Positions 7,301 through 63,212 of a DNA stretch of 64,000 nt are shown here, piece by piece. The stretch's first letter is position 1. Every line of letters starts with the position of its first letter. Both the position numbers and the translations under genes were made by a program. The notes below the pieces were generated by a model. That model ran no database searches. It was not told the DNA's origin and saw only the letters and a program-made list of their open reading frames with translations. The DNA is taken from NCBI GenBank assembly GCA_016777845.1, contig JADHQS010000001.1, forward strand, positions 3,573 through 67,572. Direction: 5' to 3'. Source of the DNA: Candidatus Actinomarina sp. GTDB lineage: Bacteria > Actinomycetota > Acidimicrobiia > Actinomarinales > Actinomarinaceae.

Positions 7301-8259
7301 CAGTTGAAGTTGGTGAAGCAGTAGGGATAATTTCTGCACAGTCTATTGGTGAGCCTGGAACACAATTAACAATGAGAACCTTCCATACAGGTGGAGTTGT
7401 AGGTTTGGATATTACATCTGGATTACCAAGGATTGTGGAATTATTTGAAGCAAGAACTCCTAAAGGAAAAGCTGTGCTTTCTCCGATACAAGGGAAAGTT
7501 AAATCTGTAGAAGTAACACCTGAAGGCAACAGAAATGTAACTATAGGAAATGAAAAAGAAGATGTAGAATTACTTGTCTTAAGAAGACAGACCTTACTTG
7601 CTAACCAAGGAGATTCGGTTGAAGCTGGGCAGTCTTTGACAACAGGACCTAAAGATCCAAAAGAAGTTTTACAAATTAATGGTGTAAGAACTTGTCAAGA
7701 ATACTTGGTTGGCGAAGTCCAAAAGACTTATAGAGATCAAGGAGTTGAGGTTCATGACAAGCATGTTGAAATGATAGTTCGCCAAATGTTAAGAAGGGTA
7801 AGGATTGTTAAATCAAACAATTCAGACTTTTTACCAAATGAACTTGTTGATTCAACATTATTTAGAAAGACTAATCAAGAGTTAGTCAAAGAGGGAAAAA
7901 TTCCTGCTGAAGGAAGACCTGAGCTTATGGGTATCACAAAAGCTAGCCTTGCAACAGACTCCTGGTTATCAGCAGCGTCTTTCCAAGAAACTACAAGAGT
8001 ACTCACTGAAGCCGCAATGAAGAGAAGTACAGATTCTCTTGCTGGCTTAAAAGAGAATGTTATTATTGGAACACTGATTCCTGCCGGAACTGGTTCCGAT
8101 GCTTATCAAAGTATGAAACCTTCTCTTCCAAATGCTCCTGAAGTTTCTAAATTAGGATTTATGGCTTCAACTTCTGAGGACTCAGAAGACGAAGCATTGC
8201 CAAATCCTGCACAATGGCTAGCTATGTTAGGTGATGAAAATGAAGTGGAGGATGAGTAA
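4345..8259 (+). CDS. rpoC: DNA-directed RNA polymerase beta' subunit
   Basis: 1304 aa; Zn finger [20 protein letters not shown], catalytic NADFDGD. Confidence 0.97.
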
Positions 8260-8352
8260 AAAACTTATAAAAATAAGGTTGTTGTAAGTTTAAATTCGTC
8301 ATATACTTCTTTTTCGGTAAGCCAAATAAGTAAATTTTAGATTGGAATAACT

Positions 8353-11323: not shown

Positions 11324-12508
11324 ATGTCAAAGGAAAAATTTGACCGAAGCAAGCCTCATGTGAACGTCGGTACAATGGGACACATTGACCACGGTAAAAC
11401 CACATTGACGGCCGCTATTACAAAAGTCTTATCTGAAGCTGGTGGAGGAGTAGCTACTGCTTTTGAAGATATTGACAAAGCCCCTGAAGAGAGGGAAAGA
11501 GGAATCACAATTCAGATAGCTCACGTTGAGTATGAAACTGAAAATAGGCATTATGCTCACGTAGATATGCCTGGTCACGCTGATTATGTAAAAAACATGA
11601 TTACCGGTGCCGCACAGGTTGATGGAGCAATTTTGGTTGTTTCTGCAGCTGATGGTCCTATGCCACAAACGAGAGAACACGTTCTACTTGCTAGGCAAGT
11701 AGGTGTACCAGCTATTGCAGTATTCCTTAACAAAGTCGATCAAGTTGATGATGATGAACTTTTAGATCTTGTAGAGATGGAAGTAAGAGAATTATTAAAC
11801 GAATATGACTTTCCAGGAGATGATGTCCCTGTAGTTAAAGGATCAGCACTTGCTGCTCTTGAAGGAAAAGAAGAAGGCGTCAATGCTGTTAAAGAATTAA
11901 TGGATCAAGTTGATGCTTACATAGAAGAACCAATAAGAGATGTTGACAAACCGTTTTTGATGCCTGTTGAAGACGTATTCTCCATTACTGGTAGAGGTAC
12001 TGTTGTAACAGGTAGAATTGAACAAGGTATTGTTAACGTAAACGAAGAAGTCGAAATTGTTGGAATTAGAGAAACATCTAAATCAGTCTGTACTGGTGTT
12101 GAGATGTTCAGAAAACTTCTTGATGAAGGTAGAGCAGGTGACAACGTCGGTCTTCTCTTACGTGGAGTTGATAAAGAGGATGTTGAAAGAGGACAGGTTA
12201 TTGCAAAACCTGGCTCAATTACACCTCATACAAAGTTTGAGGCAGAAGTTTATGTTCTTACAAAAGAAGAAGGTGGAAGACACAATCCATTTTTCAAAGG
12301 ATATAGACCACAATTCTATTTCAGAACTACTGACGTTACTGGTGAAGTAACTCTAAGTGAAGGTACTGAAATGGTTATGCCTGGTGACAACGTTTCTATC
12401 TCTGTAGAACTCATTTCTCCAATTGCAATGGAAGAAGGAGTGAAGTTCGCAATTAGAGAAGGTGGTAGAACTGTTGGAGCTGGTCAGGTGACAAAAGTTA
12501 TCGAGTAA
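11324..12508 (+). CDS. tuf: elongation factor Tu
   Basis: 394 aa; [17 protein letters not shown]. Confidence 0.97.
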
Positions 12509-12516
12509 TAAAAATT

Positions 12517-12551
12517 AACCGGGAGTAGACTTCATACTCCCGGTTTTTTTT
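12517..12551 (+). terminator. Rho-independent terminator after tuf (AACCGGGAGUA-loop-UACUCCCGGUU + U8)
   Basis: 11-bp GC-containing perfect stem followed by T-run; ends 10 nt before rpsJ ATG. Confidence 0.8.
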
Positions 12552-30883: not shown

Positions 30884-30911
30884 ATTAGTTTCTTATAATT
30901 ATAATAACGAG

Positions 30912-31082
30912 CAATTAGCGCCAGGCCTTGAAAAAGGTGACGAGGAAGTATGTTATCGAAACATTCGGCGGATGCATACTCGGCTCTGCAGTCGTAATAA
31001 ATTGTTTAAAAACATAGAGAGATCTGTGAACAGAAACAATTTAAAGCAGTCTTTATTACAACCTGCTCGTTGGAATGGAGAT
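30912..31082 (+). ncRNA. glmS ribozyme (GlcN6P-responsive self-cleaving riboswitch) in glmS 5' leader
   Basis: A/GCGCCAG cleavage-site motif at 30917-30924, P1 CCUU-GAAA-AAGG, UGACGAGGA, UUAUCGAA-ACA-UUCGGCGGAUGC, P2 strands AGUAUG/CAUACU covarying relative to Bacillus GGAGG/CCUCC. Confidence 0.85.
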
Positions 31083-38581: not shown

Positions 38582-38602
38582 TTAATTTACATCTAAGAAT
38601 TA

Positions 38603-38634
38603 AAAAAGAGTGGACATCAGTCCACTCTTTTTAT
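38603..38634 (+). terminator. Rho-independent terminator after groEL
   Basis: AGAGUGGA-CAUCAG-UCCACUCU, 8-bp stem plus U-run. Confidence 0.8.
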
Positions 38635-38650
38635 ATAGTAAACAAATATT

Positions 38651-38995
38651 ATGAAAAGCATACGTGGAGCAATTGCAGTTGTAGAAAACAATGAAGAAAG
38701 CATTATGTCTTCTTCAAAAAAACTTATTAATGAAATTCTAATTAATAATGCAATAACTGAAAATAATATTGAATTTGTTATTTTTACAGTAACTTCCGAC
38801 ATTACTGAAGCTTTTCCAGCAAAAGCATTTCGAGAGCTTGGAATGACATCTATTGCCGCAATAGATACTCTTGCACCAAATATAAATAGTGACCTTTCAG
38901 GGTGCATTCGCATATTGATCTACCTAAATAAAGATTTAGAAGAAATTAATCATGTTTATTTAGAAGATGCCAAAAAGTTAAGACCTGATAGATAA
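38651..38995 (+). CDS. aroH: chorismate mutase, AroH class
   Basis: 114 aa; aligns along full length to the Bacillus AroH pattern (IRGA..V, AFPAKA.REL, CIR, HVYL....LRPD). Confidence 0.85.
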   Translation: MKSIRGAIAVVENNEESIMSSSKKLINEILINNAITENNIEFVIFTVTSDITEAFPAKAFRELGMTSIAAIDTLAPNINSDLSGCIRILIYLNKDLEEINHVYLEDAKKLRPDR

Positions 38996-39038
38996 AAATT
39001 TATTTGCAAAGCTAAATAGTCTGCTAACATATTTGTTA

Positions 39039-39083
39039 ATGAAATTAAATAACGCATATTTTTACTTTAGAGAGCACATATAG
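39039..39083 (+). CDS. candidate aromatic-amino-acid attenuator leader peptide MKLNNAYFYFREHI
   Basis: 14 codons with tandem Tyr-Phe-Tyr-Phe; lies between aroH and the DAHP synthase gene, immediately upstream of an intrinsic terminator; weak SD. Confidence 0.55.
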   Translation: MKLNNAYFYFREHI

Positions 39084-39106
39084 GTCGCCCTAAAGTACGT
39101 TGTGTG

Positions 39107-39138
39107 AAATCGGGCAAAAGCCCGATTTTTTTATTTTG
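39107..39138 (+). terminator. attenuator/terminator hairpin AAAUCGGGC-AAAA-GCCCGAUUU + U-run in aro operon leader
   Basis: 9-bp stem, tetraloop, U7 tract; ends 1 nt before GAGGAGG RBS of DAHP synthase. Confidence 0.7.
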
Positions 39139-39151
39139 AGGAGGAAAAAAA

Positions 39152-40165
39152 TTGATAGTAGTAATGAAGCAGTCTCATACAGAAGAAGATATTGAGAAAG
39201 TAAAACAAAAAGCAATACAGCAAGGACACGAACCACTAGTTATTAACGGTGTTGAAAGAAGTGTTGTTGCTGTTAGTGGAAAAGTAAATGACGATCATAG
39301 AGCCGTTATGAAGCTTTTACCGAATGTAAGTAGAGTTATTCCAGTAGGAAAACCATATAAACTTGCAAGCAAAAACTACAAAAAGGAAAATTCCATAATT
39401 CAAATACAAAATTTAACTATTGGTGGTGATGAAATCGCAATTATTGCTGGTCCAGATAGCGCAGAGACACAGGAACAAACAATTGAAACTGCAATGGCTG
39501 CAAAGGATGCAGGATCAAATGGTTTGAGAGGTGGTGCATTTAAACCAAGAACTTCACCATATAGTTTCCAGGGATTGGGCGAAGATGGATTAAAAATGCT
39601 AAAGGAGGCCTCCGAAATTACTTCATTACCTCTTTTTAGTGAAATTATGGATGCTCAACATTTGTCAATGATGGAAAAATATGTAGACGTTTTACAAATT
39701 GGTGCAAGAAACATGCAAAATTTTAAACTCCTCGAAGCTGTTGGTGAATCAGAGTTGCCTGTATTGTTAAAACGAGGGATGTCTGCAACATTGGATGAGT
39801 TATTACTTGCAAGTGAATACATCTTATCCAGAGGAAATGAGAATGTTATGTTGTGTGAAAGAGGGATTAGAACATACGAGACAGCCACAAGGAATACATT
39901 TGATATAAATGCTATTCCTTTTTTGAAGCAGAACAGTCATTTACCTGTAATTGCTGACCCTAGTCATGCGACAGGCGACAATACTTTAGTTGAACCAGTT
40001 GCTTTAGCGGCTATAGCTGCCGGGGCTGATGGATTATTAATTGAAATTCATCCAAGGCCGGATGAAGCTTTATGTGATGGTCCACAAGCATTACTACCTA
40101 GCGAATTAGAAACTTTGATAAACAAAGCATCGATTGTCGCAAAGGCGGTTGGAAGGTCACTTTAA
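39152..40165 (+). CDS. 3-deoxy-D-arabino-heptulosonate-7-phosphate synthase, type I-beta with N-terminal ferredoxin-like regulatory domain
   Basis: 337 aa; about 70-aa N-terminal extension then KDO8P/DAHP synthase TIM barrel (GxRNMQNF, KRG, ADPSHATG); TTG start 7 nt after GAGGAGG. Confidence 0.85.
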   Translation: MIVVMKQSHTEEDIEKVKQKAIQQGHEPLVINGVERSVVAVSGKVNDDHRAVMKLLPNVSRVIPVGKPYKLASKNYKKENSIIQIQNLTIGGDEIAIIAGPDSAETQEQTIETAMAAKDAGSNGLRGGAFKPRTSPYSFQGLGEDGLKMLKEASEITSLPLFSEIMDAQHLSMMEKYVDVLQIGARNMQNFKLLEAVGESELPVLLKRGMSATLDELLLASEYILSRGNENVMLCERGIRTYETATRNTFDINAIPFLKQNSHLPVIADPSHATGDNTLVEPVALAAIAAGADGLLIEIHPRPDEALCDGPQALLPSELETLINKASIVAKAVGRSL

Positions 40166-41001
40166 TGCTAAAAAAAGTTCATATTATTGGTCTTGGTTTA
40201 ATGGGAACTAATTTGGGAATCAAGTTGGTTAATAGTGGCATTAAAGTTAGCGGATCTGATATTTCAGAAAAAAATGTAGGACGCGCAAAAGATTTTGGTG
40301 CTATTTCGTTGAAACATAAAGAATCAATAGATTATGATCTTACTGTTCTGGCTACACCCATAAATGAAATTATCAACTATTTTGATTCGAAATTATCTTT
40401 GAAAACAAAAGCTATTGTTGACCTGGGAGGTACAAAAGAGCTTATATGTAAAAAAATGGATACATCTACGATTCCTTCAATAGGTGGACATCCATTATGT
40501 GGTATTGCTGATAATAGTACGTGGGTACCGACTCCTGAAATGTATGAAGGTGCACCATTTTTGCTATGTGAAACAAAATCAACAGATAAACAAAGCAAAG
40601 CACTAGTTTCAGAATTTGTACGAGCTATTGACTCCAAAGAAATATGGATTGATCAATCTAAACACGACGAGTTAATTTCTTTGACTAGTCACTTGCCGCA
40701 TATTCTAAGTTCCGCCTTAGTGTCGCTTGCTATGAAAGAGCAGGATTTAAACGAATTGATAAATTTAGCTTCAGGTGGTTTTGATGGAGCTACTCGTCTA
40801 TCTAGGACTTCACCAAATATGATTTCTGATATGTACTTAACAAATGTTGACAATGTCAAAGATTTAATAGATAAATTAATATCAGAACTTGAAAAAATTA
40901 AAAAAATTAATGACGAAAAAATTATGTTAGATTATTTGTCAGATACTGTTGATTGGCGTAGGGCGCTAGCAGATAAATTTGGAGAAAGAGACCTCACATA
41001 G
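40165..41001 (+). CDS. tyrA: prephenate (arogenate) dehydrogenase
   Basis: 278 aa; N-terminal Rossmann IIGLGLMG, PDH catalytic-domain HxPH region (SHLPHIL). Confidence 0.8.
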   Translation: MLKKVHIIGLGLMGTNLGIKLVNSGIKVSGSDISEKNVGRAKDFGAISLKHKESIDYDLTVLATPINEIINYFDSKLSLKTKAIVDLGGTKELICKKMDTSTIPSIGGHPLCGIADNSTWVPTPEMYEGAPFLLCETKSTDKQSKALVSEFVRAIDSKEIWIDQSKHDELISLTSHLPHILSSALVSLAMKEQDLNELINLASGGFDGATRLSRTSPNMISDMYLTNVDNVKDLIDKLISELEKIKKINDEKIMLDYLSDTVDWRRALADKFGERDLT

Positions 41002-42269
41002 TGAAAATCCAAGGATCTTTAAGTATTATTGGTGACAAATCTCTTTCTCATAGAGCAGTAATTCTCTGTTCTTTAGCAACTGGAGTTTCAAATATTAAAA
41101 ATATTTTATTGTCAGGAGATACTAAAGCTACGATACAAATTTTTAGACAATTAGGTGTAGAAATAAATGAAACAAAGAACAATGAAGTGGAGATTCACGG
41201 AGTAGGGTTACATGGCTTAAAACAACCTAAAGATTCACTTGATGCAGTAAATTCTGGTACAACTGCAAGGCTTCTTATAGGTCTACTGTCAAAACAAAAT
41301 TTCAGCACTGAATTAACCGGTAGTTCTCAATTAATCAAACGCCCAATGAAGAGAGTAGTTAGGCCGCTCAATGAAAAGGGTGCTGATATAAAAGATTCCA
41401 ATGGTAAATTACCAATTAAATTTGAACCAAAAGATTATAAATTTGAAAGTATTCATTCAGATAAACCGAGTGCACAAGTTAAAAGTGGATTTCTTCTTGC
41501 ATCACTATATCATGATGAATTCCCTACGACTGTTACTGAAGAGTTGCCAACAAGAGATCACACTGAACGAATGTTAAATTTAATGGGAGTAAATACCGTT
41601 AGACTTGGTAATTCTATAACATTAGAGCCTGTACAAAGCCTTAGAAGTATGGATTATATTGTTCCTGGAGATCCTTCTTCAGCAGCTTTTTTGATAGCAC
41701 TTGGGCTAATGAAAAGTAAAAAATTAATCATCAAAGATGTTTTACTTAATGAGAGAAGAATTGGATTCCTTAAGATATTAAAGAGAATGAACGCAAAAAT
41801 TACAATCGAAAATTTAGAAATCAAAAATAATGAATCAGTAGGAGATATACATGTTTCAAAATCTAATCTCTCTGCTATCAAGGTTAGTAAAGAAGATGTA
41901 TCTGACATGGTAGATGAATTTCCAATATTTACCCTTTTAGCAACTCAAGCAAAGGGATTAACTACCGTTAGTGGTGCAGGCGAGTTGAGACTAAAAGAAT
42001 CAGACCGTATAGAATCTATGGAAAAATTTATTAAAACTCTTGGTGGAGAAATAGAGGTTAACCCTGATGGGTTTAAAGTTAACGGTCCTCAAAATCTCAA
42101 ATCAGGACAAATTAAAACTTTTGAGGACCACAGAATAGCTATGACTGGTGTAATTGCAAACCTAGCAATTAATGATGGAATTAAACCAGATAACATAAAT
42201 TGTATTTCAGATTCATACCCTAGTTTTTTTTCAGATCTTGAAAAAATTGGAGCAAATTATGACAATTAG
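41001..42269 (+). CDS. aroA: 3-phosphoshikimate 1-carboxyvinyltransferase (EPSP synthase)
   Basis: 422 aa; GDKSLSHR, EPSPS fold-length. Confidence 0.9.
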   Translation: MKIQGSLSIIGDKSLSHRAVILCSLATGVSNIKNILLSGDTKATIQIFRQLGVEINETKNNEVEIHGVGLHGLKQPKDSLDAVNSGTTARLLIGLLSKQNFSTELTGSSQLIKRPMKRVVRPLNEKGADIKDSNGKLPIKFEPKDYKFESIHSDKPSAQVKSGFLLASLYHDEFPTTVTEELPTRDHTERMLNLMGVNTVRLGNSITLEPVQSLRSMDYIVPGDPSSAAFLIALGLMKSKKLIIKDVLLNERRIGFLKILKRMNAKITIENLEIKNNESVGDIHVSKSNLSAIKVSKEDVSDMVDEFPIFTLLATQAKGLTTVSGAGELRLKESDRIESMEKFIKTLGGEIEVNPDGFKVNGPQNLKSGQIKTFEDHRIAMTGVIANLAINDGIKPDNINCISDSYPSFFSDLEKIGANYDN

Positions 42270-43053
42270 ATTAGGGATAATTGGTTGGCCATTAATAAAG
42301 ACATTTTCTCCAAATATACATCAAACTCTCTCTGAGATTTCGAATATTGATGTTACTTATAAAAAATTACCAATTGAAAATTTTACTTTAGATATCTTTG
42401 AAAGTTTAAATAATAATTTTGATGGATATAACGTAACAATTCCTCATAAAGAAAACATTTATAACTTATCTAAAGAATTAAAAAATGTTTCGAGGTCATT
42501 AGCAGTTGATAATATTAAAGCTGTAAATACCGTAAAAGTAGATGACAATATTGTTTCATTATTAAACACAGATGTGGATGGTATTAATCAAACTTTTGAA
42601 TTTTTAAATTTTGATATTAATGACAAACATGTTCTTATTCTTGGTAGTGGAGGAAGTGCTCAAACTGCACAGTATACGTTATCAGAAAATAATAAGGTTT
42701 ACATAGTGTCTAGAAATAAAAAGTATGGAGACTTAATTTATTCAGATCTTAATGAGATTTCTGGTGATATTGACGTCATTATAAATACTACGCCACTTGG
42801 AATGCCACCATATGAAAACGAAAAACTTCCAATAAGTCTTCTAAATTTCTCAAAATTAGAATTGTTCTATAACTTTGGATATGGCGTATCAAAGAAATTA
42901 ACAAGTGAACTTCCTAAAAATGTAATATCAATTGATGGAACAATAATGTTAATTGCTCAAGCAATTTCATCGTTTAACATATGGACAGGACAAAGTATAA
43001 AGTTTAACGAAGCTTACAAGGAAATATTAGAAAGGATAAATCATGAAAATTAA
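42259..43053 (+). CDS. aroE: shikimate dehydrogenase
   Basis: ATG 42259 gives MTIRLGIIGWPL...; GSGGSA NADP site. Confidence 0.85.
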   Translation: MTIRLGIIGWPLIKTFSPNIHQTLSEISNIDVTYKKLPIENFTLDIFESLNNNFDGYNVTIPHKENIYNLSKELKNVSRSLAVDNIKAVNTVKVDDNIVSLLNTDVDGINQTFEFLNFDINDKHVLILGSGGSAQTAQYTLSENNKVYIVSRNKKYGDLIYSDLNEISGDIDVIINTTPLGMPPYENEKLPISLLNFSKLELFYNFGYGVSKKLTSELPKNVISIDGTIMLIAQAISSFNIWTGQSIKFNEAYKEILERINHEN

Positions 43054-44224
43054 ATATTTGACTGCTGGTGAGAGTCATGGACCAGAATTAACAGCAATTA
43101 TAGAAGGCATTCCATCAAATTTTGAAGTAAGTAAAAGTTATATTGACGAGTTTCTAGCAAGAAGGCAAAAATCTTTAGGTTCTGGCGGAAGAATGAATAT
43201 TGAACAAGATGAGGTTTTAATTACTTCTGGTGTCATTAATAATATATCAACTGGTGGTCCGATAGCAATAAAGATAATCAATAAAGACTGGAAAAATTGG
43301 AAGGATAAAGAAATAGAACCTTTCGTAGTTCCTCGTCCAGGACATGCTGACTTAGTCGGGACATTTAAGTATCAACATAATGATATAAGACTTACACTTG
43401 AAAGAGCAAGTGCTCGTGAAACTGCAATTAGATGTGCAATTGGAGCTATCTGTCATCAAATTTTAAATCAACTTGGAGTTGAAGTTGTTGGTTATGTTTC
43501 ATCTATTGGCGAGCAAAAGTTAGAAGATATTAATTTAGAAGACATAGGTCAAATTAAAAAACTTGTTGATGAATCTGAAGTTTCCTGTCCAGATAAGGAA
43601 ACAAGTGAATTAATGATAAATGAAATTTTAAAGGCAAGAAAGAAAAAAGACACTTTAGGTGGCTCTATAACATTAGTTGCAAAAAATTTTCCTGCAGGTT
43701 GCGGTAGCTATGTTCATTTTGATAGAAAGCTAGATGCAAAACTTGCCTCATCAATGATGTCTGTACAGAGCGTTAAAGCAGTTGAGATTGGAAGTGGTAT
43801 AGAGGCATCTAAAGATTTTGGTACTACAGTACAAGATCAAATAGTTTTAAACGAACAAAATGTTGAACGAATTACAAATAATTTAGGTGGATTTGAGGGA
43901 GGCATGTCAACTGGAGAGCCTATTATGATAACTTCTTATTTAAAACCTATAAGTACAACTTTGACTCCCATAAAGAGCATTGACTTGGCATCACAGAAAG
44001 AGACAGAAACTACCTATGAAAGGTCTGACACCTGTGCTGTCCCTAGAGCTGTACCTATTTTTGAAAGTGTAATATCTATAGATCTTTTAAATTCCCTGAT
44101 TGAAAATACAGGCGGAGATAATAAAGAAGTAATTTTTAAACGAATTAATGAAATAAAAGACATAACTCTTGATAGTTTTAATCTGGCTAATAAAACATGG
44201 TCCATGAAATATGAAAATGAATAA
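43043..44224 (+). CDS. aroC: chorismate synthase
   Basis: 393 aa; AGESHGPELTAIIEG, RPGHAD. Confidence 0.92.
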   Translation: MKIKYLTAGESHGPELTAIIEGIPSNFEVSKSYIDEFLARRQKSLGSGGRMNIEQDEVLITSGVINNISTGGPIAIKIINKDWKNWKDKEIEPFVVPRPGHADLVGTFKYQHNDIRLTLERASARETAIRCAIGAICHQILNQLGVEVVGYVSSIGEQKLEDINLEDIGQIKKLVDESEVSCPDKETSELMINEILKARKKKDTLGGSITLVAKNFPAGCGSYVHFDRKLDAKLASSMMSVQSVKAVEIGSGIEASKDFGTTVQDQIVLNEQNVERITNNLGGFEGGMSTGEPIMITSYLKPISTTLTPIKSIDLASQKETETTYERSDTCAVPRAVPIFESVISIDLLNSLIENTGGDNKEVIFKRINEIKDITLDSFNLANKTWSMKYENE

Positions 44225-44711
44225 TTCATTTTATTTATGTGGGTTTATGGGTGTTGGTAAAACTACGATTTTAAACAACATTAAAGAACAAACTAAATAT
44301 AGGTGTATTGATTTGGATGAAAGTATAGAGAATAAGTTTGGTCAAATAGAAAATATTTTTGAAGAAAAAGGAGAGACTTTTTTTAGGGAAATTGAAGAAA
44401 AAGAATTTTTTGCAAATCAAAACAAATTTGATTTAATTTCTTTAGGTGGTGGTGTGATAGAAAATGACAATATTTTTGAGAATTTACTTAAAAGTCACAA
44501 AACCATTTATTTAAGTCTTAACTTTGAAAGCCTTTGGGAAAGAATTAAAAACAGCAACAGGCCATTAATTAGTAACGGAAGAGAAGTTCTTGAAAGTAGA
44601 TATAAAAACAGAATAAAAAGATACGAAATGATGGAATATAAAATTTCCAATGAAAATGTAAAAGATACTACAAGTAAAGTATTAGAAATAATGGAAACTC
44701 AAAATGCCTAA
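44211..44711 (+). CDS. aroK: shikimate kinase
   Basis: 166 aa; P-loop GFMGVGKTT. Confidence 0.88.
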   Translation: MKMNNSFYLCGFMGVGKTTILNNIKEQTKYRCIDLDESIENKFGQIENIFEEKGETFFREIEEKEFFANQNKFDLISLGGGVIENDNIFENLLKSHKTIYLSLNFESLWERIKNSNRPLISNGREVLESRYKNRIKRYEMMEYKISNENVKDTTSKVLEIMETQNA

Positions 44712-45696
44712 AAATATTTACTTAAACCGAACTGAAGAATTAATCAAACATATTAATGGAGAATTATCAAATGAGAGCTTAATTATTTTGGACTCTGCTC
44801 TCGAGCAATTTCAATTACATAACAACTTTAATGCAAGCCATGTTTATCTAGAAGTATCTGAAGAAACAAAGAATTTAGAAACAATTGAAAAAATTTGGGA
44901 AATAATGTTTTTATCAAATTTAAATAGGTCACATGAAGTAGTAATTATTGGAGGTGGGGTTATGCTCGATCTCTGCTCTTTTGCTGCAAGTACATACAAA
45001 AGGGGTGTTGCCTTCACATTAGTTCCGTCTACTTTATTAGCTATGGTTGATGCATCTCATGGAGGGAAAAACGGTTTTAATAATGTTCATGGAAAAAACC
45101 AGATTGGAACTTTTAATTTGCCAAAGAGTGTTGTTGTGTGTTTTGAACTTCTTAACACATTGAAAGATAATGATTATAAAGATGGATTAATTGAGCTTGT
45201 AAAACATGGACTAATTGGAAGTAGAGAAATATTTAATGAATTGGTTTTTACAGAAAATTTCAAAATAGATACTAAGACAATCAAAAAAGGAATACAGATC
45301 AAAGAAGATATCGTAAAAGAAGATTACTTAGAAACTGGAAAAAGGAAATATTTAAATTTTGGACACACAATTGGCCACTTAATCGAGCAAGATTCGAAGT
45401 TCAATTTATCACACGGTGAAGCAGTCGCTATAGGAATAATTTATGAACTCGAACTGTCAAAGAAACATTTTGGATTACCACAAGAGGTAATTGATTTATA
45501 TATATCGTATCTAGAAAAACTTAATTTCAAGAAATCATATAAATTTGAAAACAATATCGATTACTTATTAGAAATCTTAAAAGATGATAAAAAAAGCAAA
45601 TCTGATTCTGTAGATATTGTTTTATTGTCAGATATATCACAACCTAATTTAATTAGTATAAGTTTTGATGAATTGATTGAGGTGATTCAAAATTAA
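44704..45696 (+). CDS. aroB: 3-dehydroquinate synthase
   Basis: 330 aa; GGGVMLDL, metal-binding HG..HLIE / HGEAV. Confidence 0.9.
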   Translation: MPKNIYLNRTEELIKHINGELSNESLIILDSALEQFQLHNNFNASHVYLEVSEETKNLETIEKIWEIMFLSNLNRSHEVVIIGGGVMLDLCSFAASTYKRGVAFTLVPSTLLAMVDASHGGKNGFNNVHGKNQIGTFNLPKSVVVCFELLNTLKDNDYKDGLIELVKHGLIGSREIFNELVFTENFKIDTKTIKKGIQIKEDIVKEDYLETGKRKYLNFGHTIGHLIEQDSKFNLSHGEAVAIGIIYELELSKKHFGLPQEVIDLYISYLEKLNFKKSYKFENNIDYLLEILKDDKKSKSDSVDIVLLSDISQPNLISISFDELIEVIQN

Positions 45697-46129
45697 AAAT
45701 ATATACATTATCAATGGTCCCAATCTTAATTTTTTAGGTATTAGAGAAATTACACAATACGGCTCCACAAGTTATGATGAGTTAAAAAATTTAGTAAATT
45801 CTGAAGCTAAAAAGTTAAAAATCAAAACTGATTTTTTTCAATCAAATATTGAAGGCGAAATTGTAAATTATATACAAAATCTAGTTAATAATGAAAATAC
45901 ATGGATTGTGATTAACCCTGGTGCGTACACACATACAAGTATTGCAATAAGAGACGCTTTGCAGACTTACTCACAAAACAATGAAATAGTTGAAGTTCAT
46001 ATTTCAGATATAAATCAAAGAGAGCAATTTAGAAAAATAAACTTAATTTCTGATATTTGCAATAAATCAATTATTGGAAGAGGTGTGCAGGGATATATAG
46101 AAGCACTGGAGTATATTAATGAACAGTAA
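45692..46129 (+). CDS. aroQ: 3-dehydroquinate dehydratase, type II (start codon non-canonical/uncertain)
   Basis: In-frame translation from 45692 gives (I)KNIYIINGPNLNFLGIREITQYG...WIVINPGAYTHTSIAIRDAL, a full-length type II DHQase; no ATG/GTG/TTG between upstream in-frame TGA (45683) and residue about 72. Confidence 0.8.
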   Translation: MKNIYIINGPNLNFLGIREITQYGSTSYDELKNLVNSEAKKLKIKTDFFQSNIEGEIVNYIQNLVNNENTWIVINPGAYTHTSIAIRDALQTYSQNNEIVEVHISDINQREQFRKINLISDICNKSIIGRGVQGYIEALEYINEQ

Positions 46130-46940
46130 AAAAATAATTGCTTACCAGGGTTCATCTGGCTCATATTCAGAACAACTTTTGAAAAAAGAATATCCAGATT
46201 ATCTGTATCATCCAACAGAAACATTTACTGAGTTAATTTCTTATGTAAAATCTGATTCTGGCATTGGATTATTACCTGTTGAGAATTCAATTGCAGGTAC
46301 TGTGAATGAAGCATACGAAGAGCTTATAGACAGTGGTTTAAAAATCTTTGCTGAATATATACACAGAATTAACCATAGTTTAATTGGCTTAGTGGGTTCA
46401 GATATATCAAATATTACAAATGTTATTTCTCACCCACAGGCATTACAGCAATGCAGCAAGTTTATACAAAAGTATAAGTTCAGAATCACTCCAGTCTTTG
46501 ATACAGCGGGAAGTGTATTTGAAATTTTAGAAAAAAATGAACTTACTATCGCTGCGATAGCCGGTGAACATTTTGAAAGCGATGAAAGATTTTTGATTTT
46601 AGAAAAAAATATATCAAATCATGAAGAAAATTATACAAGATTCCTTCTGATTGGAAATATAGATTTAGATCATAAACAATTTAATAACAAGGTTTCATCA
46701 GTACTCATATCTGATGATAAGCCAGGTTCATTATTGCAGTCTTTGAATATTTTTAGTGAACTGGATATAAACCTAACAAAACTTGAATCACGACCAATAC
46801 TTGGAAGACCTTGGGAGTACAAATTTTACATAGATTATGAACTAGAAAACTTGGAAAAACAATATGAGCTTGAGGAAAAAATAAGTAAAGTCGCCAAAGA
46901 ATTTAAGTTATTGGGGCATTATCCAAAAGCTATTCAGTAA
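46119..46940 (+). CDS. pheA: prephenate dehydratase (PDT + ACT domains)
   Basis: 273 aa; PDT domain, C-terminal ACT (ESRP motif). Confidence 0.88.
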   Translation: MNSKKIIAYQGSSGSYSEQLLKKEYPDYLYHPTETFTELISYVKSDSGIGLLPVENSIAGTVNEAYEELIDSGLKIFAEYIHRINHSLIGLVGSDISNITNVISHPQALQQCSKFIQKYKFRITPVFDTAGSVFEILEKNELTIAAIAGEHFESDERFLILEKNISNHEENYTRFLLIGNIDLDHKQFNNKVSSVLISDDKPGSLLQSLNIFSELDINLTKLESRPILGRPWEYKFYIDYELENLEKQYELEEKISKVAKEFKLLGHYPKAIQ

Positions 46941-55264: not shown

Positions 55265-55386
55265 ACCATGAAATCCAAATAAAATTCCAATTATTACTAT
55301 ATTTATTAACCCTGCTTTTGCTGATAGCTTATATTCGGATTTTATAAAAACTCTCCAATTTGATTTAGTTTATTAGAATAGCAGAT

Positions 55387-56361
55387 ATGAAAACAGTTTT
55401 TTCTGGTATACAACCAAGTGGACTAGTGCATCTAGGTAATTTACTAGGGGCAATAAATAATTGGGTTAAGCTATCAAATGAAAACAGTAAAAATTACTTT
55501 TGTATAGTTGACCTACATTCATTAACAGGACTACCAAATAAGAATGATCTTAAAAAAAGTATAAATGATACTTTAAAAGTACTTGTAGCTTCCGGAATTA
55601 ATACTAAAACTTCGGTCATATATACACAAAGTAGTCTTCAGGAACACGCTTATCTTTCTTGGATACTGTCTAATTTCTGCCAAGTAGGAGAGTTACAGCG
55701 AATGACTCAGTTTAAGGAAAAAGCTTCTTCTTTTGGTACTCATTCAGGTTTATTGACGTATCCTATCTTGATGGCTTCTGATATTTTAATACACAAAGCT
55801 AATGAAGTTCCCGTAGGAGATGATCAAACTCAACACCTTGAATTGACTAGAAATATAGCAGAGCGTTTTAATTCAAATTATGGTGAAATATTTCCAATCC
55901 CTGAAAAAACAAGTGGAAGATCAGGTGCTCGTTTGATGTCTCTAAGACATCCACAAAATAAAATGTCTAAAAGCTCTGATGATATAAATGGAACTGTTTA
56001 CTTTAATGACGAAAAAGACAACATATTAAAAAAATTTAAATCTTCAGTTACTGATTCTGAAAACATTGTTAGGTACGACCCTAAAAATAAACCAGGTATT
56101 AGTAATTTGATTGAAATTTATGCTGCAGTTAATGATAAAGAAATATCTGATACAGAAAAAGAATTTGAAAATTCTCAATATGGGGAATTTAAAATAGCTG
56201 TTGCTGAAACAGTAATTGACTATCTTGACCCAATAAAAAAGAATTTTCATGACTTAACCAGTGATAATTTAGAGGATATTGTTGTATCAAATTTAAAATC
56301 AGCAAAAAATTCTGCTCAAAAAACAATTATTGAAGTTGAAGAAGCTTTAGGTATAAGTTGA
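55387..56361 (+). CDS. trpS: tryptophan--tRNA ligase
   Basis: 324 aa; class I HIGH-like PSGLVHLGN and KMSKS. Confidence 0.93.
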   Translation: MKTVFSGIQPSGLVHLGNLLGAINNWVKLSNENSKNYFCIVDLHSLTGLPNKNDLKKSINDTLKVLVASGINTKTSVIYTQSSLQEHAYLSWILSNFCQVGELQRMTQFKEKASSFGTHSGLLTYPILMASDILIHKANEVPVGDDQTQHLELTRNIAERFNSNYGEIFPIPEKTSGRSGARLMSLRHPQNKMSKSSDDINGTVYFNDEKDNILKKFKSSVTDSENIVRYDPKNKPGISNLIEIYAAVNDKEISDTEKEFENSQYGEFKIAVAETVIDYLDPIKKNFHDLTSDNLEDIVVSNLKSAKNSAQKTIIEVEEALGIS

Positions 56362-63177: not shown

Positions 63178-63212
63178 GAAAAGACGACGAAAGTCGTCTT
63201 TTCTTTTTATGG
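63178..63212. terminator. bidirectional terminator hairpin AAGACGAC-GAAA-GUCGUCUU between hup and the convergent SCP2 gene
   Basis: 8-bp stem, GAAA tetraloop, T-runs on both sides. Confidence 0.75.

Follow-up and report, generated by a model that had tools for sequence, protein, structure and literature searches.

The DNA analysed here is a window of 64,000 nucleotides (nt) from a Candidatus Actinomarina sp. contig (JADHQS010000001.1), with a G+C content of 33.8% and a very compact gene map. One of the largest intergenic gaps in the open reading frame (ORF) map of this window, 156 nt long (38996-39151), separates aroH, encoding a type I chorismate mutase, from the gene for 3-deoxy-D-arabino-heptulosonate 7-phosphate (DAHP) synthase, hereafter DAHPS. 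The latter opens a series of nine tightly packed or overlapping genes that cover the common shikimate pathway together with the Tyr and Phe branches. Within the gap lie a putative promoter, a 14-codon leader ORF encoding MKLNNAYFYFREHI, four codons of which specify aromatic residues, and an intrinsic terminator (Table 1). In our interpretation this leader is very probably a ribosome-mediated transcription attenuator of the leader-peptide type, which would adjust expression of the nine-gene operon to how much charged tRNA-Tyr and tRNA-Phe is available.

Table 1. Features of the aroH-DAHPS region, with the mean pairwise divergence of leader segments and DAHPS codon positions in alignment A1 (41 unique genome-derived sequences). 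SD, Shine-Dalgarno sequence.
Feature	Position	Strand	Basis or remark	Divergence
aroH, type I chorismate mutase	38651..38995	+	Pfam CM_1, E = 4e-34	
-35-like hexamer TTTGCA (putative promoter element)	39003..39008	+	TT 39003-39004 invariant in alignment A1; 16 nt upstream of the -10	
Promoter spacer				0.529
Extended -10 TGC-TAACAT (TGnTAnnnT), TGCTAACAT	39022..39030	+	conserved motif in the alignment	
Segment from -10 to ATG				0.48
Leader ORF and stop	39039..39083	+	sequence reading; ATG at 39039, TAG at 39081-39083	
N-terminal leader codons				0.181
Outer stem of hairpin 1:2, 5' side (about codons 4-7)	39053..39058	+	pairs with 39101-39106	
Regulatory codons Tyr-Phe-Tyr-Phe (TAT TTT TAC TTT), aromatic run	39057..39068	+	sequence reading, low divergence	0.078
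Region 1, UACUUUAGAGAGC	39063..39075	+	pairs with region 2 (alignment columns 71-81 with 93-101)	
Stop codon to region 2				0.074
Region 2, GCCCUAAAGUA	39087..39097	+	GCCC invariant	0.074
Outer stem of hairpin 1:2, 3' side, in the variable pre-terminator spacer	39101..39106	+	fold	
Spacer before terminator				0.326
Intrinsic terminator, regions 3 and 4	39106..39137	+	fold, RNAalifold	0.033
SD GAGGAGG (39138-39144) and TTG start (39152) of the DAHPS gene	39138..39154	+	sequence reading, alignment	
DAHPS second codon positions				0.087
DAHPS third codon positions				0.479
Operon DAHPS-tyrA-aroA-aroE-aroC-aroK-aroB-aroQ-pheA	39152..46940	+	Pfam and ORF map	

The two borders of the gap define how the operon can be transcribed. 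No separate terminator follows aroH, and transcripts of this gene therefore continue into the leader and up to the attenuator terminator. At the other end, the SD directly abuts the T-run, which leaves no room for a promoter between the terminator and the ribosome-binding site (RBS); the operon is therefore expressed only by read-through. Its first product carries, besides the DAHP synthase domain PF00793, an N-terminal ferredoxin-like (FXD) regulatory domain (Pfam PF18152), and the presence of DAHPS, tyrA and pheA among the operon genes fits the use of Tyr and Phe codons as sensors. A first-pass annotation of this DNA had already pointed out the gap, the leader ORF with its YFYF run, the terminator just upstream of the DAHPS RBS, the regulatory domain of the enzyme and two sets of complementary segments described below, all of which we find at their expected places.

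Some of these elements are uncommon in the window and others less so. Runs of at least four consecutive aromatic residues are encoded by 6 of the 1095 micro-ORFs that start with ATG; the leader ORF is the sole intergenic one, and a search of the window for other aromatic micro-ORFs or attenuators placed the remaining five inside coding regions. No convincing alternative ORF of at least 20 amino acids (aa) was found across the gap on either strand. About four strong terminators made of a hairpin and a T-run stand out in the intergenic DNA of the 64 kb, the attenuator terminator among them.

Upstream of the leader ORF, the -35-like hexamer is replaced at the same site by TTGGCA, TTTGTA or TTTTCA in relatives. 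Across alignment A1 the extended -10 keeps an invariant T, G, T, A and final T around variable middle positions. Pooling genomes and metagenomes (see below) yields 80 unique sequences from promoter to SD; the TGnTAnnnT motif is found in 78 of them, and its distance to the A of the leader ATG is 7 nt in 55 sequences and 8 nt in 22. The variable 7-8 nt between this motif and the ATG never contain an SD; the DAHPS gene does have one (AGGAGG). Transcription is thus predicted to start at 39037-39039, at or 1-2 nt upstream of the leader ATG, and the absence of an SD together with a conserved extended -10 only 7-8 nt away suggests that translation of the leader ORF probably takes place on a leaderless transcript. 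Leaderless transcription has been described for the trpL, leuL, ilvL, thrL and metL leaders of Streptomyces lividans (PMC8079986), and the ilvB leader of Corynebacterium glutamicum is said to form its peptide without an RBS, according to a title cited in PMC4046766.

Conservation provides the strongest argument for a function of this leader. A scan with the DAHPS protein, using one genome per species, retrieved 47 full-length loci from Candidatus Actinomarina and other Actinomarinales at 71-99% identity; beyond these, all matches belong to other phyla and do not exceed 55% identity, which agrees with the actinobacterial origin supposed in the first-pass annotation. The leader arrangement is identical in 47 of 47 Actinomarinales loci, while no such leader ORF is present at any of the 31 loci from other phyla that have the same type of DAHPS. 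Divergence within alignment A1 varies sharply along the leader (Table 1), and in its constrained segments conservation equals or exceeds that of DAHPS second codon positions. A scan of metagenomes with the terminator sequence as the sole anchor gave 102 matches. The aromatic micro-ORF is complete in 85 of these, another 6 represent the leader cut by a contig end or altered by a deletion, and 11 are unrelated. The latter act as a negative control: none of these 11 terminators with the same stem sequence is preceded by an aromatic ORF.

The mode of variation in the ORF fits that of a coding sequence. The 80 unique sequences encode 28 distinct peptides, in which the run [Y/F]FYF always comprises four (once five) consecutive Tyr or Phe residues with no non-aromatic interruption. 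Codon usage in the run is TAC-TTT-TAC-TTT in 57 sequences, TTT-TTT-TAC-TTT in 16, TAT-TTT-TAC-TTT in 5, and TTT-TTT-TAT-TTT and TAC-TTT-TTT-TAT-TTT in one each; changes are limited to exchanges between Tyr and Phe and to synonymous TAC/TAT changes (run variants TACTTTTACTTT, TTTTTTTACTTT, TATTTTTACTTT, TTTTTTTATTTT and TACTTTTTTTATTTT). Codons 2-6, on the other hand, are free to vary (K/N; L/T/I/M/F; N/K/V/M/L/R/T; etc.), and one clade shows an in-frame 3-nt indel with the loss of exactly one codon. Loss of the aromatic codons in relatives was an observation that the first-pass annotation had singled out as speaking against an attenuator; they are kept in all 47 genome loci and in all 85 full-length metagenome copies. 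Chance alone is an insufficient explanation of the leader once its conservation in relatives is considered.

One metagenome contig (LUMQ01001684.1, minus strand; locus L127) presents an unusual rearrangement. At about 8150-8330 of the reverse-complemented locus, a deletion has removed the stop codon of aroH together with the promoter and initial four codons of the leader, fusing aroH in frame to the remainder of the leader (...DAKKLRP-NTYFYFREHI*) and leaving terminator and DAHPS unchanged. Ribosomes translating aroH would here read the YFYF codons, although this is a single contig and possibly an assembly artefact.

The leader RNA is predicted to form pairings of the kind expected of an attenuator, with the antiterminator as the weak point. 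The terminator hairpin (3:4), GAAATCGGGC-AAAA-GCCCGATTTT (39106-39129), has 10 pairs, five of them G-C, and is followed by T7-A-T4 up to 39137; it consists of a 5' arm (39106-39115, with GGGC at 39112-39115), a loop (39116-39119) and a 3' arm (39120-39129), with the T-run covering 39126-39137. Upstream, UACUUUAG (39063-39070) in region 1 is the perfect complement of CUAAAGUA (39090-39097) in region 2, as initially annotated, and the complementarity noted at the same time between GCCC (39087-39090) and the GGGC of the terminator 5' arm is likewise present. Region 2 is thus bipartite: its 3' part pairs with region 1, and its 5' GCCC pairs either with the G-GC of region 1 or with the GGGC of region 3. 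The unconstrained fold contains a long hairpin 1:2 (39053-39106) adjoining the terminator (-34.8 kcal/mol, z = -2.76 relative to shuffles). RNAalifold applied to alignment A1 returns the same two helices, the first joining UACUUUAG-A-G-A-GC to GCC-CUAAAG, which means that hairpin 1:2 holds three bases (GCC) of the invariant GCCC. Over 57 unique leaders, the 8-nt core of helix 1:2 can form all 8 base pairs (bp) in 30; in a further 20, 6 and 1 leaders, the number falls to 7, 6 and 5 bp, respectively. Outer-stem complementarity is kept in several clades of unlike sequence (ACAAUAC/GUAUUGU, UUGAACA/UGUUCAA, ACAACGUA/UACGUUGU). In one relative, locus L042, coordinated changes in regions 1 and 2 retain a 9-bp helix and the terminator shows one compensatory change, from U-A to G-C; when region 1 of the window is combined with region 2 of L042, the energy is only -0.4 kcal/mol, versus -9.3 and -11.9 kcal/mol for the native pairs.

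Two further peculiarities concern hairpin 1:2. In loci L013 and L019, CUUUAG takes the place of CUAAAG in region 2 (some 70 nt ahead of the DAHPS start), the hexamer being swapped for its own reverse complement. Region 2 is therefore identical, not complementary, to region 1, and hairpin 1:2 drops from about -15 to -11 kcal/mol; a template-switch event may account for the exchange. The Tyr codons of the leader, for their part, are almost always TAC in relatives, whereas the genome has a TAT:TAC ratio of 74:26 (counted in 22 coding sequences of the window), a contrast that points to a constraint at the RNA level, particularly on the C39065-G39095 pair.

For the antiterminator (2:3), folding was limited in each ortholog to the RNA not covered by a ribosome stalled on the final aromatic codon, with transcription taken to have reached the terminator loop. 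The helix (UU)GCCC-GGGC(AA) is the minimum-energy fold of this segment in 41 of 41 orthologs, at -5.8 to -10.7 kcal/mol, and measures 6 bp in 39 of the 57 unique leaders, 5 bp in 13 and 4 bp in 5. Since dinucleotide shuffles of the segment tend to recreate GCCC, random genomic 26-mers were used as a background. By this standard the 2:3 pairing taken by itself is only marginally unusual, and its weight comes from the invariance of GCCC amid saturated neutral sites. The position of the ORF relative to these structures fits attenuation. Exactly 3 nt separate the stop codon from GCCC in all but one of the 41 unique genome-derived leaders (40 of 41), the exception being L042, where the two overlap; the last aromatic codon is 19 nt upstream of GCCC. 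With a ribosome footprint of the usual size, a terminating ribosome would mask region 2, and a ribosome stalled on YFYF would leave it free.

These elements suggest the following mechanism. The extended -10 promoter would set the start of transcription at the leader AUG or immediately ahead of it, and a ribosome would load on the leaderless 5' end. When Tyr-tRNA and Phe-tRNA are both plentiful, the ribosome would reach the stop codon (39081-39083) and cover GCCC; after its release, region 1 would pair with region 2. Either way GGGC would remain free to enter the terminator stem, and RNA polymerase would halt in the T-run before the DAHPS RBS. When either charged tRNA is scarce, the ribosome would stall on YFYF, masking region 1 and leaving region 2 single-stranded, so that (UU)GCCC could pair with the nascent GGGC(AA) before the terminator 3' arm is made; the terminator would then fail and the operon be transcribed. 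In transcripts coming from aroH, the leader ORF is internal and lacks an SD, and the RNA would adopt the 1:2 and 3:4 folds and terminate. In living cells, this leader would thus be expected to respond to Tyr and Phe supply. The attenuator interpretation first made from the window alone is strengthened by the comparison of relatives, which keep the aromatic codons, a near-invariant terminator and region 2, and a geometry that fits the classical model; a probable leaderless start of the leader ORF is to be added to it.

Several observations weigh against this interpretation. Paired positions are nearly all invariant, so covariation is minimal, with a single compensatory pair in the terminator, that of L042. 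The swap test is weak for the outer stem (-5.8 for self versus -5.2 for cross pairing). Hairpin 1:2 is weakened without compensation in L013 and L019 (CUUUAG) and, through single mismatches, in several metagenome singletons. The antiterminator of the window is merely 4 bp long because of a U-to-C change at 39086, and random genomic 26-mers equal its energy in 5% of draws, or a consensus-type energy in 1.5%. The minimum-energy fold and RNAalifold recover 1:2 and 3:4. A 2:3 helix of 4-6 bp exists in every ortholog, but at equilibrium the terminator prevails over it, and this remains so in folds under constraint, of the kind that the first-pass annotation had advised, with a ribosome footprint placed at any of the four aromatic codons. 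Antitermination must then be kinetic, with 2:3 formed before the 3' arm is transcribed. What speaks for the antiterminator is invariance, not covariation, and both its identity and its kinetic action are inferred. Finally, the model does not require the degree of conservation seen in the hairpin loop and in the ORF's 3' half (GAGCACAUAUAAG; codons 12-14, stop and loop): AGAGAGCACAUAUAAGYUGCCC, from codon 11 through the stop and loop, is almost invariant, and the peptide tail (R/S)(E/A)HI is conserved as well.

This excess conservation could reflect a second function of the leader beyond attenuation, with the RNA of about 95 nt or the 14-residue peptide acting in trans, or with the nascent peptide modulating ribosome release. 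The possible trans role resembles that reported for rnTrpL and peTrpL of Sinorhizobium (PMC6614838). More generally, leaderless leader-peptide attenuators could be a main regulatory device in these 1-Mb genomes, in which transcription factors are few. We regard these extensions of the attenuator interpretation as unlikely.

The same conservation could also mean that the leader is an untranslated structured RNA sensing a metabolite, a tRNA or an RNA-binding protein, with GAGCACAUAUAAG as binding site. The loop and the 3' half of the ORF are indeed conserved beyond pairing needs, and the TAC bias of the leader Tyr codons goes in the same direction. However, only about 68 nt separate the predicted start from the terminator, and in a search of Rfam with positions 38600-39500 at E <= 10 the gap matched neither Phe_leader, Trp_leader, His_leader or Thr_leader, nor a T-box or riboswitch. 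Matches to Leu_leader and L20_leader in this search, at 38600-38717 around the groEL terminator, were at chance level. A T-box would call for a specifier loop, for the T-box sequence that pairs with the acceptor end of the tRNA and for about 200 nt or more of leader; the leader described here has no UGGN or T-box motif, and its roughly 100 nt are mostly ORF. Moreover, the 5' third of the leader varies in sequence and by whole codons, and all changes in the run stay aromatic, including TAC to TTT. Such codon-wise variation and Tyr/Phe exchanges indicate a constraint on peptide coding that is hard to explain for an aptamer, and we consider this alternative improbable.

A simpler possibility is that the hairpin is a constitutive, leaky terminator of aroH, that the operon lives on unregulated read-through and that the ORF is incidental to AT-rich DNA. 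aroH indeed has no other terminator, aromatic runs are not rare among the micro-ORFs of the window (6 of 1095), and the terminator is the stable structure in every equilibrium fold. This explanation nevertheless leaves aside the conserved promoter between aroH and the terminator, the retention of ORF, frame and aromatic run in 80 unique sequences, with a divergence six-fold below that of neutral-like sites and an in-frame indel, and the 11 unrelated terminators with the same stem and no such ORF; it is very improbable. The least credible explanation, that promoter, ORF and terminator form an independent gene whose product, a small RNA or a peptide of 14 residues, has its own function, perhaps trans-acting and with a cis role lacking or additional, can invoke a complete transcription unit of about 95-100 nt, the conserved C-terminal (R/S)-(E/A)-H-I and loop sequence and the precedent of a trans-acting attenuator RNA reported for the Sinorhizobium trp system (PMC6614838), but the N-terminal half of the peptide is free to vary, no target or partner came to light (none was looked for) and the operon has no other possible promoter, so that terminator read-through would be needed anyway.

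Other observations concern the surroundings of the leader and the rest of the window. Upstream of aroH, the bidirectional groEL terminator (38603-38632) overlaps a promoter-like element, TGGACA-17-TATAGT (38611-38639); the aroH ATG (38651) lies 11 nt past this element without an SD, and the 5' untranslated region of aroH may be very short or absent. Within the operon, aroQ, encoding a class II dehydroquinase (45686-46129), has no ATG, GTG or TTG before 45908. Its reading frame is nevertheless open as far up as 45686, and the stretch concerned codes for the N-terminal half of the protein (NIYIINGPNLNFLG...), which is conserved. Translation probably starts at a non-canonical ATT (45692-45694) that overlaps the stop codon of aroB (ATTAA). 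Two more strong intrinsic terminators occur on the + strand, at 12517-12551 (-18.1 kcal/mol) and 63178-63208 (-16.7 kcal/mol); the first follows a 394-aa ORF (11324-12508) that is presumably tuf. An Rfam scan of the whole window at gathering thresholds detected glmS only, and this ribozyme (RF00234, 90.9 bits, 30906-31053) precedes the glmS gene. For a Tyr/Trp-family tRNA-synthetase gene of class I (324 aa; 55265-56361, start at 55387), the 122-nt upstream region is devoid of leader ORF and terminator, unlike the situation at Streptomyces trpS, where a Trp leader peptide is present.

Never cultured, Candidatus Actinomarina belong to the smallest free-living bacteria of the sea and also to the most abundant ones. 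To our knowledge, almost nothing is known of their gene regulation. The leader described here is a regulatory signal of high confidence, and its conservation extends to all Actinomarinales genomes sampled. Under the attenuator interpretation, a single cis-acting leader of about 100 nt would govern the common aromatic pathway and both the Tyr and Phe branches with no regulatory protein, in a control layer stacked on the allosteric control of DAHP synthase. The ratio of attenuated to read-through transcripts in marine metatranscriptomes could then be a possible gauge of Phe/Tyr sufficiency in situ. This type of attenuator is well known and its mechanism is textbook knowledge: what is new is its occurrence in the Actinomarinales lineage, which specialists may find pleasing rather than surprising. 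The Actinomarinales genome papers that we checked do not mention attenuators, riboswitches or aromatic biosynthesis, and our literature search found no link between Actinomarina and attenuators.

Among known systems, the closest is the aroR-aroF attenuator of C. glutamicum, reportedly described by Neshat et al. in 2014. According to the literature consulted, its Phe-Tyr-Phe leader was found by RNA-seq, and transcription rises on Phe limitation (PMC4046766, PMC3890552, PMC11802643, PMC7356990). Leader-peptide attenuation of aromatic genes in Actinobacteria, which had been called a prediction when the window was first annotated, is therefore more than that, the same sources reporting both RNA-seq data and a response to Phe (PMC11802643, PMC4046766); the system nonetheless remains new for this lineage. 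A comparative survey of 2005 described no Phe/Tyr RNA element in Actinobacteria (PMC1262725). Like the Actinomarina leader, aroR is actinobacterial, encodes a short peptide by way of Phe and Tyr codons in succession and immediately precedes a gene for DAHP synthase, and ribosome-mediated attenuation is reported for it. The Actinomarina system differs by its run of four codons ([Y/F]FYF) and by the unit controlled, a nine-gene operon with the whole shikimate pathway, tyrA and pheA. Its DAHPS carries the N-terminal FXD domain (Thermotoga-like type), and its host has a genome of about 1 Mb with 34% GC. An origin independent of aroR seems likely, the comparison covering the described motif and position of aroR. 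The known range of actinobacterial Phe/Tyr leader attenuation would extend from Corynebacterium to a distant, low-GC lineage.

The leader also resembles trpL, leuL and ilvL of Streptomyces and Corynebacterium, in which a 5'-end ORF of 12-18 codons without RBS precedes hairpins and, in several cases, a U-stretch (PMC8079986, PMC3890552, PMC1262725); those leaders sense Trp, Leu or branched-chain amino acids, unlike the Actinomarina leader. With pheL-pheA and trpL-trpEDCBA of Escherichia coli it would share the 1:2/2:3/3:4 logic, and it has regulatory codons in region 1, a stop codon just before region 2 and a terminator directly before the first gene. In contrast to these two, it has no Rfam match and no SD, is probably leaderless and would rely on an antiterminator of only 4-6 bp; it also mixes Tyr and Phe codons, and would control the common pathway rather than a terminal branch.

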